Source: a virus (taxonomy: Duplodnaviria > Caudoviricetes). Taken from it: 64,000 bases of DNA. A model generated the notes under the pieces. The model did no database searches, was not told the origin of the DNA, and saw only the letters and a program-made list of their open reading frames with translations. Both the position numbers and the translations under genes were made by a program. Shown here one piece after another: positions 17,046 through 33,234 of the stretch. Positions within the stretch are counted from its first letter, which is position 1. Each line of letters begins with the position of its first letter. Location of the stretch: IMG/VR virus record IMGVR_UViG_3300044991_001466; one strand, given 5' to 3'.

Positions 17046-17074
17046 AAAAAAAGGTCCTTAAAAAGGACCTTTTG
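17046..17074 (-). terminator. Intrinsic terminator of tmRNA (bidirectional)
   Basis: aaggtcct/aggacctt inverted repeat flanked by A and T tracts. Confidence 0.75.
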
Positions 17075-17468
17075 TGGAGATGACGGGACTCGAACCCGTG
17101 TCTTTCCGGTTCAACAATAAATGACTACACGTTTATTCAATTAGTTCTTAATTGACAAATAGAAGGTTAATATCAGGAAACCTACAATACTGTTCCTAAC
17201 CGGATTTTCAAGAGCCGTCAAGTTTGCTCCAACACTCTGGGGTTATGTTCCACCGAAGGGACTTCTGTTCCTAGGTTATATGTCCATCGACCCGATTGTA
17301 GTTTCGCCTTAGGCTACTGCTACGTTAGAAGTTGCAAGTAAACCTGCAATTTCCATGTTTGTGTAAACGTTTCCGTTTGAAATTTTCCACCGTAGATTTA
17401 AGTCATAGATGAAGTCTGACTACGTGCCATTTATCCCTGATACCTGAAATCAATTCCATGGCATCCCC
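17075..17468 (-). ncRNA. ssrA: tmRNA
   Basis: 5' GGGGATG pairs with 3' CATCTCC-A (G3:U70 alanine determinant); T-arm CGGG-TTCGAGT-CCCG; internal tag ORF. Confidence 0.93.
17309..17374 (-). other. tmRNA tag reading frame GNVYTNMEIAGLLATSNVAVA*
   Basis: Open 21-codon frame ending in VAVA-TAA after tttcaaac; resume codon inferred. Confidence 0.7.
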
Positions 17469-19255: not shown

Positions 19256-19846
19256 TTAAGGGGTTACTTCAAAAACTAAATTTACCCTAACTTTATTTGA
19301 TGCATTAATGAAGGTATGTAGGGAATTTCCAATCGAATAGACTGAACCTGATTTTAAATTATGAATAGAATTTAATTCACTATCATTTAAAAAAAACTCA
19401 TTAAACTCATCAAAATTTTCAGGGAAATCTTTTCTCATTTTATTATAGATTTCACCTTTTTCATGTAGTTTTTGTTCAAGTAAACATTCATAATTATAAA
19501 ACTTAACGTCATCATTTAATGGTAAAATATACCTGTTTAATCCTCTATCAATGTGAAAATTAATCTCACCCTTTTGTGCGTACTCTAAATAAAATAAGAT
19601 GTTAATATTAAATAATTTTTTTAAACTATCAATAAAGTTAGTTAAATCATCTTTTACTCGATAACTAATTTCATGAATAGAATCTAAACTATATACTTTC
19701 TTAAAATTTGGGTCTCTATTATAAATGATGTAATTAACATTATGATTTAAAAAATGTTTTAAGTGAAAAGAATCGGAATTATAAAAATCAATGACTTTTG
19801 TCAAATAAACATCATCTATTTCCGTTATCTTTTTTAATCCTTCCAT
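19256..19846 (-). CDS. Putative 2OG-Fe(II) dioxygenase (Asp/Asn hydroxylase-like cupin)
   Basis: FHID...LH..N...RVNLVF (HxD...H...R) pattern. Confidence 0.5.
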   Translation of the reverse strand: MEGLKKITEIDDVYLTKVIDFYNSDSFHLKHFLNHNVNYIIYNRDPNFKKVYSLDSIHEISYRVKDDLTNFIDSLKKLFNINILFYLEYAQKGEINFHIDRGLNRYILPLNDDVKFYNYECLLEQKLHEKGEIYNKMRKDFPENFDEFNEFFLNDSELNSIHNLKSGSVYSIGNSLHTFINASNKVRVNLVFEVTP

Positions 19847-19863
19847 TTATATAATTATATGGC

Positions 19864-19892
19864 AAAAAAAAAAGTCAGAATTTCTTCTGACT
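19864..19892 (-). terminator. Intrinsic terminator closing the large ncRNA
   Basis: Minus strand agtcagaa-gaaa-ttctgact followed by a U tract of about 10. Confidence 0.8.
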
Positions 19893-20815
19893 GGTTTTTC
19901 TTTAGGCCGAACGGTTTTAAAACGTTCCGATTCCACCACTTTGTTTTACTAAACAAAGAAAATAAAACACTGAGAATACATGTCTTAATGAGAATCTTTT
20001 AAACGGATTATTGTTTCCCGTTTGTTTCCACTACCTTTTGAGTAGTAACCCTCAGCGGCGGTCAATTAGATTAACCAATCCTAAAGTCATCAGATACTCT
20101 TTTAATACTCATTACTCTTCGAGATTGCCATCCCAATTAAACCTTATGAGTTTAGAGAACTTTTTTAAAAATCATATTGGGATTGAGTCCCTTTATGGCC
20201 GTGAACCCCTCACGACTAAGTAGCCACCTGTCTCCAATGACTGACGAACACTTTTTCTTTTATTTTTTTAGTTTTCACCATTGAAAGTAAAAGTTTGGTT
20301 TGCAGATTAGGAAAGTAGCGGTTCGTCGACCAGCCAAGCCACCTTTTGAGCGACTCGATACTAAACTACTCTCTAAGACATCCCTGCCTTCATATTTTTG
20401 GTTTCCTTCAGAATTAAACCCTTGGTAGAGTTTAATTAAGGATGATAACAGCACCACCTGTTTTCCACCATACCTTTCGGTTTTAAAGATACCATTATAT
20501 TGAACAACACAATTATAAGGTTGGAGACCTTATTTCTTGTAATAGTTCTACAAGTTATTCTTATTGTTCTTCCGAACTCAGTCAAACGACCTGCATCGCT
20601 TGACCACCAAACCACTTTCCCTACAGTGTTACCCTCAGTACTTAAGGTTCGATGATACCTTGCTTGCCTACTCGAGTTCTATTTCTAAAACCGCAATCTC
20701 ATTCAACCAAATGAAATTACTTTATCCCACTTTCATGGTTTATTTTGTTGACCATAGGCGGCCAATATTTTTAATTCAAAGAACTTTTTCTTTCGATAAA
20801 ACCACCTTTGTGATT
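19865..20815 (-). ncRNA. Large (~950 nt) structured non-coding RNA, GOLLD-like candidate
   Basis: No credible ORF, GC-richer than flanks, many hairpins, two identical UCAAAAG loops, TATATTTG promoter at 20823-20830, terminator at 3' end; family assignment not verified. Confidence 0.7.
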
Positions 20816-20822
20816 TCTTTTA

Positions 20823-20830
20823 CAAATATA
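20823..20830 (-). promoter_or_regulatory. Bacteroidota sigma-A -7 element TAnnTTTG (representative)
   Basis: TATATTTG at 20823-30(-), 19220-27(-), 57375-82(-), 61774-81(+); TATCTTTG at 29895-902(-). Confidence 0.7.
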
Positions 20831-20854: not shown

Positions 20855-21088
20855 TTATTTAGAAACTTTTTTATTATTTTTTTTCTTTTCAACCTTAACT
20901 TCGTAAGTTCCACCCATATCGTGTTGAGTTTCAACAACTTGTGTTTTTTTATTACCCTTCCAATCTGATTTAGGGATAAATTTCCAAACACCGCTAGCCA
21001 CTTTTTGGTCTGCATCAATATCGTCAGTTCTACGAATTTCTCCTAATGTATAGGATTTTGTTTCTTTAATTGCTTTAATACATTTCAT
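20855..21088 (-). CDS. Small basic hypothetical protein
   Basis: ORF 77 aa. Confidence 0.55.
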   Translation of the reverse strand: MKCIKAIKETKSYTLGEIRRTDDIDADQKVASGVWKFIPKSDWKGNKKTQVVETQHDMGGTYEVKVEKKKNNKKVSK

Positions 21089-28861: not shown

Positions 28862-28878
28862 AATTCTTATTTTTAGAG

Positions 28879-28952
28879 TGGACCAGATAGGAATCGAACC
28901 TATTACCTTCACATTATGAGTGTGCCGCTCTAACCTAGTGAGCTACAAGTCC
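28879..28952 (-). tRNA. tRNA with CAT anticodon (Ile2 or elongator Met)
   Basis: Full cloverleaf; loop CTCATAA; A73; CCA not encoded. Confidence 0.9.
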
Positions 28953-28962
28953 AAAATTTACG

Positions 28963-29036
28963 TAATCCCGTTTGGATTCGAACCAAAGACCCACATCTTA
29001 GAAGGATGTTGCTCTATCCAACTGAGCTACGGAACC
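28963..29036 (-). tRNA. tRNA-Arg(TCT)
   Basis: Cloverleaf; ACATC-CTTCTAA-GATGT. Confidence 0.92.
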
Positions 29037-29076
29037 AAAATTAACACTATCGTCTTTGAAAGTTTTTATTTAATCG

Positions 29077-29325
29077 TTATGCCTTACGGCTTATTGTTAT
29101 TTTACTCTCAAGTTTATCTAAACGTGAATCCAATACACGATAAACATCGTTCATTGCATTTTCACGTTCTCTGTTTTGATTTTCAATCTCTCTTCCGAGA
29201 CATTGTTCTACTTCTCTAATTTCTTTGTTTAGTTTATTAACCTTAACAAAGGCAATAACCGCAACTACCGCAACTGCGATAACCACAACTATTGACATTC
29301 CTAAAATAAATGATAATATATCCAT
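29077..29325 (-). CDS. Small TM plus coiled-coil protein
   Basis: Likely start MDILSF at 29325. Confidence 0.55.
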   Translation of the reverse strand: MDILSFILGMSIVVVIAVAVVAVIAFVKVNKLNKEIREVEQCLGREIENQNRERENAMNDVYRVLDSRLDKLESKITISRKA

Positions 29326-29381
29326 ATTAATTTTCTCCTTTATTTTCAAAGAACGATAGTGTTGTAATAAAATATAACAAA

Positions 29382-29411
29382 AAAAACCCGAATAAAAAAA
29401 TTCGGGTTTTT
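29382..29411. terminator. Bidirectional intrinsic terminator downstream of tRNA-Ser
   Basis: aaaaacccgaa/ttcgggttttt inverted repeat. Confidence 0.7.
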
Positions 29412-29416
29412 CTGTT

Positions 29417-29507
29417 TGGCGGAGAGAGTAGGATTCGAACCCACGGGCCAGTTTCCCGGCCTCCTGATTTCAAGTCAGGTGCAATAGACCAACTCTACCA
29501 TCTCTCC
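29417..29507 (-). tRNA. tRNA-Ser(TGA)
   Basis: Cloverleaf with long variable arm; CCTGA-CTTGAAA-TCAGG; G73 and encoded CCA. Confidence 0.95.
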
Positions 29508-29626
29508 AATTTTCCCGTTTTTTCCTCACATTTAGCCCAATCAACAGTGAGACATTGATTGGATTTTGATCATAGAAGCTTATAAGGTTTCCCCATTAAG
29601 CCGTTACCACGGGCAAACTAAATCAG

Positions 29627-29700
29627 CGGACTAGACGAGACTCGAACTCGCGACCTTCGGCGTGACAAGCCGACATTCTAACCAACTGAACTACCAATCC
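29627..29700 (-). tRNA. tRNA-Asp(GTC), canonical
   Basis: TCGGC-TTGTCAC-GCCGA; G73. Confidence 0.94.
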
Positions 29701-31576: not shown

Positions 31577-33234
31577 AAAAACTAATCTCCATCATTGGGT
31601 TGTTCTTAATAACCTACACGTCATTTGGTCAACTGACCATTAATCAATCGTTCACTCCGACTTCAAATTTAAAAGTTGGTGACACTCTTTCGATAAAATA
31701 TACCGTTGATAGAGGTACAACAACACCAAGATATTTTTGGTTAAGGTATCAATTTAATAATAAGGCATTATCTTACGTTTCAACCGTATTTTCACAAGGA
31801 ACTTCGGTACAAACATTTTATACTGGTTGGACTGGATATAAATTTACACCAAGTACTGCAAATAGTATTACCGCCACAAGTTTATATGCACAATATTTAG
31901 TAAGTCCTTGGGGTTATGCGGCAAACGTAGATTGGAACGTTGGTCAATTAACAGTACAAAGAACTGACGCATCAATCAACGGAGATATTGCAACTCAAAA
32001 ATATGTAATCAAAGATTTAGTTGATTACACAAATATTCATAAATTAGATTTATCATATTCAATCGATGCAACAAGTGCAAGTATTACACCAATTACCACA
32101 AATCCCGGTACAATATCATTAGGTTCAGTAAAAGGTGGTACTTCTTCATTTAAGGTGAGAGTGTTGTTTCCACAAGGATATACGATTGCTGACCACGGGA
32201 TTTCGTTATTACAATTAAACGCGACTAAAACTGATGTTGATTGGACTAAAGCCCCATTAGCATTTAAACAATTAGATGCAAGTGGTGAAGCGACATTTAC
32301 AACCGAAGTTAAAGTAGGAGATACGATTGGATTAATGGTGAGTCCGCCAAATGGTAAAACATGGATGAACAATGTTATAACAGTGTCTGACGCATATAAA
32401 GCATTTTTAGGTATTGCTCAAACTGACATTAATGGCACAAAAAACTTTTTCCAATATAATCGAGAAAGAATAATGGCTAATGTATCTAAAGATGATGGTA
32501 CGGGTACAGAGATTTATAATGAGACAGATGCATATTATTTATTTTCACATGTAATGGGTATAGATGTGAGTACAAAGGCATTTATTCCGTCATCTACCGC
32601 CACAACACTTCGTTATGGTAGTTCATTATTAAATCAAGGATGGTTAGATGGTACAAATAAGTATATAACAACCGTAACATCAGCAACACAAGCGGTGGAT
32701 ATGGTTTTTGCTTGGAATGGTGATTTAGATTTTTCTCACTCATCTTCATTAACTGAAATTGCAAGTAGAATATCAACTGGTAATTACGCAAATTCAATTA
32801 AAGGTAATGATGAAGTTGGAGTTAATAAATCAATGTCAGTTCAATCAATGTCATATAATCAAGTATTTGAAACTGCTAAATTAAGTTTAACCTCTACAAT
32901 AGTTAACGGTAAGGTAGTATTGACTGGTAATTTAACAAAAGAAGGTTTAGCTGGTTTAGAGGTTATATTACAATATGATAATTCTAAATTAACTTTTGAT
33001 AACATTTCATTTGATGCGGGTCCAAGTGTAACTAACTTTTCAACAAATGCAGATGGTAGATTAACATTTGGTTCTATGGATCAAACAAAAACCGCAAGAA
33101 TTAAGACAGGTACACCATATAAATTAACATTTACACCAAAAGAAACCATAACAAACACCTCAGGTTTATTCTATACAGTTTTAGCTGATGCTGTTGATGG
33201 AAACGGAAACAAAATTAATTTGACAGTGGAGTAA
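31573..33234 (+). CDS. Secreted protein with dockerin-like and cohesin-like modules
   Basis: Signal peptide; ITVSDAY...ANV...NETDAY (dockerin-like); GLEVILQYDNSKLTFD (cohesin-like). Confidence 0.6.
   Translation: MKKLISIIGLFLITYTSFGQLTINQSFTPTSNLKVGDTLSIKYTVDRGTTTPRYFWLRYQFNNKALSYVSTVFSQGTSVQTFYTGWTGYKFTPSTANSITATSLYAQYLVSPWGYAANVDWNVGQLTVQRTDASINGDIATQKYVIKDLVDYTNIHKLDLSYSIDATSASITPITTNPGTISLGSVKGGTSSFKVRVLFPQGYTIADHGISLLQLNATKTDVDWTKAPLAFKQLDASGEATFTTEVKVGDTIGLMVSPPNGKTWMNNVITVSDAYKAFLGIAQTDINGTKNFFQYNRERIMANVSKDDGTGTEIYNETDAYYLFSHVMGIDVSTKAFIPSSTATTLRYGSSLLNQGWLDGTNKYITTVTSATQAVDMVFAWNGDLDFSHSSSLTEIASRISTGNYANSIKGNDEVGVNKSMSVQSMSYNQVFETAKLSLTSTIVNGKVVLTGNLTKEGLAGLEVILQYDNSKLTFDNISFDAGPSVTNFSTNADGRLTFGSMDQTKTARIKTGTPYKLTFTPKETITNTSGLFYTVLADAVDGNGNKINLTVE

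Follow-up and report, generated by a model that had tools for sequence, protein, structure and literature searches.

A complete GOLLD RNA gene with conserved cage-building contacts and putative expression signals of its own in a probable jumbo phage

Described GOLLD RNAs and the present locus

GOLLD RNAs have been known since 2009, are among the largest non-coding RNAs of bacteria and phages, and form hollow, protein-free cages larger than the ribosome. Here we analyse a GOLLD locus in a virus of the Caudoviricetes (Duplodnaviria; IMG/VR record IMGVR_UViG_3300044991_001466). The term ‘window’ denotes the whole stretch of 64,000 nucleotides (nt) that was analysed, and the locus lies on its minus strand at 19865-20830. 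A first-pass annotation, made from the letters alone, had proposed that this tract encodes an ornate non-coding RNA, either a member of the GOLLD family or a new large RNA. We regard it as virtually certain that the tract is a true full-length GOLLD RNA gene and a new copy of this known family. Taken as a whole, the locus is best explained, with high probability, as a complete GOLLD gene of a jumbo phage with a cage-forming architecture and its own expression signals.

The closest described structure is that of env-38, a GOLLD RNA from a marine metagenome whose 14-mer cage was solved in 2025 by cryo-electron microscopy (PDB 9MEE; Kretsch et al., Nature 2025, PMC12286853). Its sequence was compared by eye as printed in the supplement (PMC12286853). 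The first ~45 nt of the 5′ domain in the window, read from 20765, are nearly identical to the opening of the env-38 construct (GGCCGC-UAUGGUC ... AAAUAAA ... GAAAG ... GGAUAAAGU), which places the window in the 5′-domain class of the solved 14-mer cage. Both RNAs share the same pseudoknot, the same state at the L20 loop and the linker (CUCAA with AGAAAAAG), both hairpins P21a and P21b, CAAAAG loops at L14 and L24, and an A-rich interior linker without a transfer RNA (tRNA). In contrast, the 5′ domain of the window falls ~30 nt short of that of env-38, several of its hairpins being shorter; L21a has an AU core, and the window adds a 3′ tail of ~100 nt, its own terminator and a leader resembling those of ribosomal RNA (rRNA).

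The GOLLD RNA of Streptococcus agalactiae, a prophage RNA of a Gram-positive host, forms a 12-mer, and its 3′ domain alone mainly a 10-mer (PDB 9L0R, 9LMF). It resembles the window in the 3′ domain from P14 to P27, including the contacts at L14, L20-linker, L21 and L24, but lacks P9, P11a-c and P21b. As the window has both hairpins of the three-way junction, it is env-38-like. The only GenBank phages matching the window are the uncultured huge phages LR756502 (642 kb) and LR745206 (635 kb). These very large genomes also carry full-length GOLLD (275 and 287 bits), whose 5′ domain is homologous; however, their tRNA genes flank the RNA directly, the L21a core is UCGA, the 5′ domain has an extra insertion and identity is only ~65-73%. 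A literature search for GOLLD in huge phages found nothing relevant. ROOL is likewise a large phage or prophage RNA found near tRNA genes, with an RNA-only cage (8-mer) and an interior linker, but its sequence and fold are unrelated, and no ROOL match was obtained in the window at the Rfam gathering threshold.

Identity and extent of the gene

An Rfam scan of the whole window, the check suggested in the first-pass annotation, matched RF02032 (GOLLD) at 19967-20373 on the minus strand with 298.8 bits and an expectation value (E) of 1.7e-84. The match is non-truncated, spans model positions 1-416 of 416 and contains zero pairs flagged as non-canonical. Because it reaches twice the curated gathering score of the model (150 bits), the GOLLD option is right and the new large RNA is excluded; as foreseen, so strong a match lowers the novelty yet confirms the RNA. 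The same scan of the full virus record gave an E of 8.3e-88 and a single GOLLD copy.

RF02032 models the conserved 3′ domain only. It therefore explains the lower 407 nt of the tract and leaves ~450 nt upstream unaccounted for, so that annotation by this model marks just the 3′ part of a ~950-nt unit. Relatives were collected by a pattern scan of IMG/VR and screened with a separate nhmmer profile for each domain, which gave 31 non-redundant copies having both domains. Their structured cores measure 804-877 nt, and that of the window (20765-19967, minus strand) 799 nt. The placement of tail, terminator and promoter makes the originally proposed limits, 19865-20830, the likely transcription unit around this conserved core. 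We infer a likely transcript of ~950 nt with a structured core of ~800 nt.

The description of the tract as an ORF-free, GC-richer segment of the minus strand also holds. Its content of guanine and cytosine (GC) is 36.2%, against 31.3% for the window and 21-27% for the flanks. The longest stop-free runs are 84 amino acids (aa) on the minus strand and 95 aa on the plus strand, and the open reading frames (ORFs) on the RNA strand reach only ~60 aa.

The 5′ domain

Two features are needed here:

20374-20765, minus strand: GOLLD 5′ domain (cap domain, P1-P13 region), assigned by homology and covariation; P1 starts with GGCCGCC at 20763.
20590-20595, minus strand: 5′-domain hairpin loop UGCAGG, complementary to the linker segment UCUGCA at 20306-20301.

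The 5′-domain alignment of 32 sequences (the window and its 31 relatives) was folded with RNAalifold. The consensus comprises 103 predicted pairs, 79 of which show double compensatory changes, and covariation with homologues, another check suggested at the outset, is thus present. With these partners 96.3% of the alignment cells are paired, as opposed to 38-44% when the partners are slid by 1-3 columns. In 200 column shuffles, paired cells did not exceed 79.7%, and at most 65 pairs had double changes, against the 79 observed. Judged by its sequence, the 5′ half (about 20765-20374) is a normal GOLLD 5′ domain.

Several hairpins had been singled out in this region. Those at 20412-20437 and 20515-20533 are perfect as written. 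The hairpin at 20536-20554 is perfect too, but it is private to the window sequence and does not belong to the conserved fold: in the consensus of 32 sequences its 5′ arm pairs with 20659-20663 and the remainder with 20502-20512. A long-range 7-bp pair between 20762-68 and 20174-80 had also been proposed. The complementarity is present, but its meaning is not borne out, since the tract contains 81 perfect complementary 7-mer pairs, which puts this one at chance level. Furthermore, the GOLLD consensus places its 3′ partner in a local hairpin, and the covariation-supported fold leaves its 5′ partner unpaired.

In 25 of the 32 copies the UGCAGG loop and the linker segment form six of six pairs; four positions covary. 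The observed mean was attained by none of 2000 partner permutations, a control that exaggerates significance because GOLLD copies are related by descent. This helix (20595-90 with 20306-01) probably ties together the two domains of one chain. It is a clean 6 bp in the window, whereas env-38 as printed needs a bulged A when compared by eye. The published covariation table covers env-38 nt 422-832 only, and the helix falls outside that range (PMC12286853).

The 3′ domain and the cage-building contacts

Helix numbers were mapped by position from the env-38 covariation table and the text of the two structure papers; for L20, L21a/b and L24 the assignment is positional.

19967-20373, minus strand: GOLLD 3′ domain (P13/P14 to P27), the section that Rfam models (RF02032, 298.8 bits).
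20337-20355, minus strand: tip of P14, capped by L14 with UCAAAAG (first twin loop); CAAAAG invariant in 32 copies, stem covaries.
20029-20047, minus strand: hairpin P24, capped by L24 with UCAAAAG (second twin loop); CAAAAG invariant in 32 copies, stem covaries.
20321-20327, minus strand: pseudoknot arm GACGAAC, located in the P13/P14 hairpin bulge; its partner is 20249-20243.
20243-20249, minus strand: pseudoknot arm GUUCGUC, which closes the linker loop; pairs with 20327-20321.
20250-20311, minus strand: J13/15 linker, with UCUGCA at 20306-20301, AAAGAAAAAGU at 20260-20250 and, between them, an A-rich middle of low conservation.
20183-20187, minus strand: L20 loop CUCAA; its U and the next C pair with G-A of the linker (AAAG-A-AAAAG).
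20144-20148, minus strand: L21a loop CAUAA with a self-complementary AU core; core palindromic in 31 of 32 copies.
20126-20129, minus strand: L21b loop GGCA with a self-complementary GC core, kept in all 32 copies.

Two different stems capped by an identical loop had been noted as possible multimerisation sites. TCAAAAG indeed occurs exactly twice in the tract (20349 and 20041), each time atop a 7-bp stem. The first copy corresponds to L14; in env-38, P14 is labelled at 429-474 and L14 is the intermolecular A-minor bridge B6 (PMC12286853). The second hairpin sits between P23 and P26 and is P24/L24 by position only. In the S. agalactiae cage, the docking sites are P21′ for L14 and P21″ of the other half-shell for L24, as described in the structure paper. 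The twin loops thus occupy the positions of known inter-subunit docking loops, which favours their reading as multimerisation sites. Across the docking-loop set (L14, L24, L26) and L27, CAAAAG is invariant at L14/L24, and GGGAAAcAAUAAUCC and UAUUCUCAG are conserved.

The pseudoknot is a 7-bp stack in which six of seven pairs covary, and the equivalent env-38 pairs (467-471/555-559) are listed in the published covariation table (PMC12286853). It borders the J13/15 linker, which measures 60-93 nt among the copies and whose middle part is unalignable. ARAGORN detected no tRNA embedded in this linker. In env-38 the corresponding nt 497-538 are disordered and point towards the inside of the cage (PMC12286853). 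The A-rich stretch that the first-pass annotation had placed at 20250-20275 was confirmed and is unpaired.

The middle base of L20 and its partner in the linker are concordant in all 32 copies and occur in four states, the window having CUC / AGAA. A switch from C-G to A-U is seen in the neighbouring pair as well. The rare U-A state of the window is shared with env-38, where J13/15-L20 is an intermolecular kissing loop (bridge B7; PMC12286853).

L21a takes the forms C-GC-AA, G-UCGA-A or C-AU-AA, so that 31 of the 32 copies have a core of GC, CG (inside UCGA) or AU, the exception being L073, which has the loop on the other arm. Switching between GC and CG has been reported for this symmetric kissing loop (bridge B8; PMC12286853). 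In the sequences compared here, AU is a third core state. On the 3′-domain tree it arose twice from GC-bearing sisters, once in the window and its relative L095 and once in the pair L077/L081. L21b is the second symmetric kissing loop (bridge B9; PMC12286853). In this relative (L073:5762-6589) the hairpin loops of the three-way junction appear to have changed places, the first arm carrying GGCA and the second CGCAA.

At the level of sequence, every cage-building contact examined is retained in the window, which carries compensated rare states at two inter-subunit contacts. The two independent changes of L21a from GC to AU with the palindrome kept are a further sign from natural variation that the RNA-RNA contacts seen in vitro are selected. 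This bears on the idea that in vivo the RNA works as a single molecule or together with a protein or the ribosome, the cages being an in-vitro property. The structure papers give no in-cell GOLLD structure, and ribosome binding in pull-downs is mentioned (PMC12286853), both of which speak for it. However, a core that changes between GC, CG and AU yet stays palindromic makes sense only for contacts between copies of the same RNA, and multimers persist in vitro at 12.5 nM (PMC12286853). We therefore consider a purely monomeric or partner-bound role quite unlikely, and retain the multimeric reading.

Promoter and leader

The region upstream of P1 contains two putative expression signals:

20823-20830, minus strand: promoter −7 element TATATTTG of the Bacteroidota type TAnnTTTG, conserved in relatives; predicted start near 20815.
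20775-20784, minus strand: boxA-like leader element GTTCTTTGAA, 47 nt past the promoter motif and 20 nt before P1.

TAnnTTTG is the −7 element of Bacteroidota promoters. In the window it is followed by TAAAAGAAA, and both are kept in the nearest relatives, L095 and L067 (3′ domains 93% and 80% identical to the window), while the flanks diverge. The spacer between promoter and core varies from about 0 to 80 nt among these three loci. In the 120 nt upstream of the 32 GOLLD genes TAnnTTTG reaches 4.7/kb, against a same-strand background of 1.0/kb (4.6-fold). A scan for sigma-70 promoters returned none at 20830; this promoter type was rejected for the site, as the motif fits the Bacteroidota −7 consensus. 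The first-pass annotation had credited the RNA with its own promoter, and TATATTTG at 20830-20823, conserved and of an enriched type, supports this. Independent transcription from it is likely.

The competing view holds that GOLLD is no independent unit: the RNA would arise by read-through from the protein gene upstream, which ends at 20855, or from a longer operon, followed by processing, and TATATTTG would be incidental. Co-transcription does occur in the family, as GOLLD of several relatives lies inside arrays of tRNA and transfer-messenger RNA (tmRNA) genes without TAnnTTTG directly upstream, and the blank sigma-70 scan at the site of the window promoter fits the same view. Against this, the motif and TAAAAGAAA persist in L095 and L067 while their surroundings have diverged, TAnnTTTG is enriched upstream of GOLLD as given above, and its spacing to the boxA-like element is regular. 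For the window, read-through is accordingly an improbable account, and an independent unit is preferred.

The rRNA-like signal GTTCTTTGAAA was examined upstream of P1 in the 32 GOLLD loci. GTTCTTTG occurs within 200 nt upstream of P1 in 28 of them, compared with a background of 0.18/kb. It usually follows TAnnTTTG by 35-37 nt, and by 47 nt in the window. For comparison, 16S leaders were taken from five Flavobacteriia genomes (L165-L169), which were reached through unrelated loci. All five have TAnnTTTG and, ~45-55 nt further on, GTTCWTWGA. The motif is exact in Chryseobacterium (AAGTTCTTTGAG; GTTCTTTGAG) and takes the form GTTCATAGACA or GTTCATAAACA in the four Flavobacteriaceae. A promoter followed by a spaced motif, both in GOLLD and in Flavobacteriia 16S leaders, makes the layout rRNA-leader-like. 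Whether GTTCTTTGAA works as a boxA or Nus-type element is a more tentative matter, which we place slightly on the doubtful side.

GTTCWTWGA, present in five of five Flavobacteriia rRNA leaders, is a candidate Bacteroidota boxA; a literature search found no paper defining such an element. GTTCTTTG is absent before the tmRNA gene of the window, and a copy at 31964 lies within coding sequence and is probably due to chance. The only other well-placed copy in the window is GTTCTTTGAAAA at 29347-29354 on the minus strand, between the tRNA-Ser terminator, which it closely follows, and a small hydrophobic ORF (start 29324) that is followed by tRNA-Arg and tRNA-Met. A similar stretch occurs in L082, downstream of GOLLD and its tRNAs (70% over 86 nt).

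In three relatives (L008:4597-5432, L073:5762-6589 and L088:7074-7921) GOLLD lies in same-strand arrays of ~11-24 tRNA genes without TAnnTTTG directly upstream. L008 and L073 also lack GTTCTTTG upstream of GOLLD, whereas L088 has it; these arrays contrast with the stand-alone unit of the window.

The 3′ tail and terminator

Downstream of the core, two further features complete the unit:

19893-19966, minus strand: lineage-specific 3′ tail with two predicted hairpins (19958-19939 and 19937-19905); fold −30.3 kcal/mol, z = −3.5.
19863-19892, minus strand: intrinsic terminator with an 8-bp stem, GAAA loop and ten U; the hairpin (19892-19873) is followed by the U-run.

The tail of ~100 nt is common to the window, L095 and L067 only, and hairpin 1 contains one compensatory change. 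The strong terminator noticed at first reading stands. A terminator scan found two against 0.5 expected, and the terminators have the same form with different sequence, that of L067 lying at the same place as in the window.

In 13 of the 31 relatives a tRNA-Met gene begins 10-21 nt downstream of GOLLD, where the window has its tail. The tail was considered as a decayed tRNA-Met and rejected, since its alignment scores against the downstream regions of 12 relatives are at shuffle level. It was likewise rejected as tRNA-like: ARAGORN reported a ‘tRNA-Leu’ only at the 80% threshold, with a T arm taken from the U-run of the terminator, and made zero calls at default settings and none in L095 and L067.

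Directly downstream of the terminator lies a very AT-rich ORF of 196 aa (19256-19846, minus strand; 21-25% GC), for which neither Pfam nor PHROGs gave a match. The similarity between L095 and the window ends immediately past the terminator. A homologue of a ~440-nt RNA reported behind GOLLD and tRNA-Met was sought as well; none adjoins the window GOLLD, and just two short, weak matches fall elsewhere in the window.

Weighing the overall reading

Several observations weigh against a complete, self-expressed and cage-forming gene. The GOLLD of the window has no adjacent tRNA (none within 3 kb, the nearest at 8 kb) and no tRNA-Met after it, unlike most described loci. The AU core of L21a would make a weaker two-pair kiss than GC. 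The exact leader motif was found in only one of the five host-type leaders tested, and the boxA assignment draws on motif resemblance only. Use of the promoter is a prediction, the host assignment comes from the type of that promoter, and self-assembly is extrapolated from the env-38 and S. agalactiae homologues.

Some of these points also suit a decaying, non-functional GOLLD remnant, a reading that we hold to be very improbable. The tRNA-Met that neighbours GOLLD in many relatives is absent, and rare states are present (U-A at L20-linker and AU at L21a). Yet each rare state is compensated on both sides, the U-A state is identical to that of the structurally solved env-38, the full RF02032 model is matched with zero flagged mismatched pairs, and promoter, leader and terminator are intact. 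The faintest prospect is a new ornate RNA family merely resembling GOLLD, or a cluster of small-protein genes, whose sole point is the ORFs of ~60 aa in the mechanical listing and which is refuted by the E of 1.7e-84 and by substitutions that keep base pairs, not codons.

The preferred reading is thus a complete member of a known family. What it adds is minor: the AU state of L21a, the covarying helix between 5′ loop and linker, and the tail in place of tRNA-Met.

Proposed expression, assembly and function

In the mechanism that we propose, host RNA polymerase would start at the TAnnTTTG promoter and pass through the boxA-like GTTCTTTGAA. This element may recruit Nus factors as in rRNA operons and so shield the long untranslated transcript from early termination, until the terminator (19892-19863) would bring transcription to an end. 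Folding would give the RNA a 5′ cap domain and a 3′ ring domain, joined by the helix 20595-90/20306-01. A closed cage could then arise by protein-free self-assembly, in which the A-rich loops L14 and L24 dock and L20 kisses the linker between neighbours. Self-kissing of L21a and L21b would join the half-shells, and the A-rich linker would lie inside the cage. By analogy with its homologues, self-assembly into an env-38-like cage is likely. An env-38-type 5′ domain together with both the P21a and P21b hairpins leads us to expect a 14-mer.

The function of such a cage can be addressed only tentatively. A translation-linked role, in which the cage belongs with the tRNAs and the tmRNA to a translation-takeover set of the phage and holds or sequesters tRNA- or ribosome-related cargo during lytic growth, is our leading guess, though less likely than not. 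A role as anti-defence decoy or in sequestration is unlikely, and the remaining weight falls on something else.

A more specific proposal is that the GOLLD of this phage lineage is a free-standing stable-RNA gene, comparable to a miniature rRNA operon in its host-type promoter, boxA-like antitermination signal, structured RNA and terminator. The conserved two-hairpin tail would replace tRNA-Met, the host rRNA transcription machinery would mass-produce the cages, and the tail would serve as a lineage-specific cargo or docking handle. We judge this combination speculative and rather unlikely. If it were true, it would offer a concrete experimental entry to GOLLD function; a 14-mer assembly of the env-38 kind would carry 14 tails, displayed on the cage or enclosed in it. 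The window GOLLD is a clean, self-contained example from a probable jumbo phage. Its boundaries are well defined, its leader is rRNA-like, its 3′ tail is private, and a tmRNA gene lies close by.

Genomic context and host

The source is an IMG/VR virus record of 129.7 kb with a CheckV completeness of ~39%. The full genome is therefore probably that of a jumbo phage of roughly 300 kb, of a lake type. The type of promoter suggests that the host is probably a member of the Bacteroidota.

A search of one genome per prokaryotic species for the 5′-domain class of the window gave 45 pattern matches, five of which are real GOLLD. These five copies (L132, L137, L154, L155 and L158) lie on contigs of 0.5-12 kb from metagenome-assembled genomes labelled as Saccharibacteria, Woesearchaeota, Methylocystis and Bacteroidetes. 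Such small contigs are probably mis-binned phage DNA and are thus uninformative on the host.

Neighbouring genes, annotated with Pfam and PHROGs, comprise a metallophosphoesterase, a family-2 glycosyltransferase, a weak sulfotransferase match and unknowns, among which no functional link to GOLLD was found. Four tRNAs are encoded at 28878-29700 on the minus strand (Rfam scan, in agreement with ARAGORN). The tmRNA gene lies at 17072-17468 on the same strand, 2.5 kb downstream of GOLLD (81 bits; ARAGORN tag peptide ATSNVAVA*). A tmRNA within 3 kb of GOLLD was found in five of the 32 loci, the window and L095 among these. In L017, L052 and L041 the order is tmRNA, GOLLD and tRNA-Met, with gaps below 250 nt.

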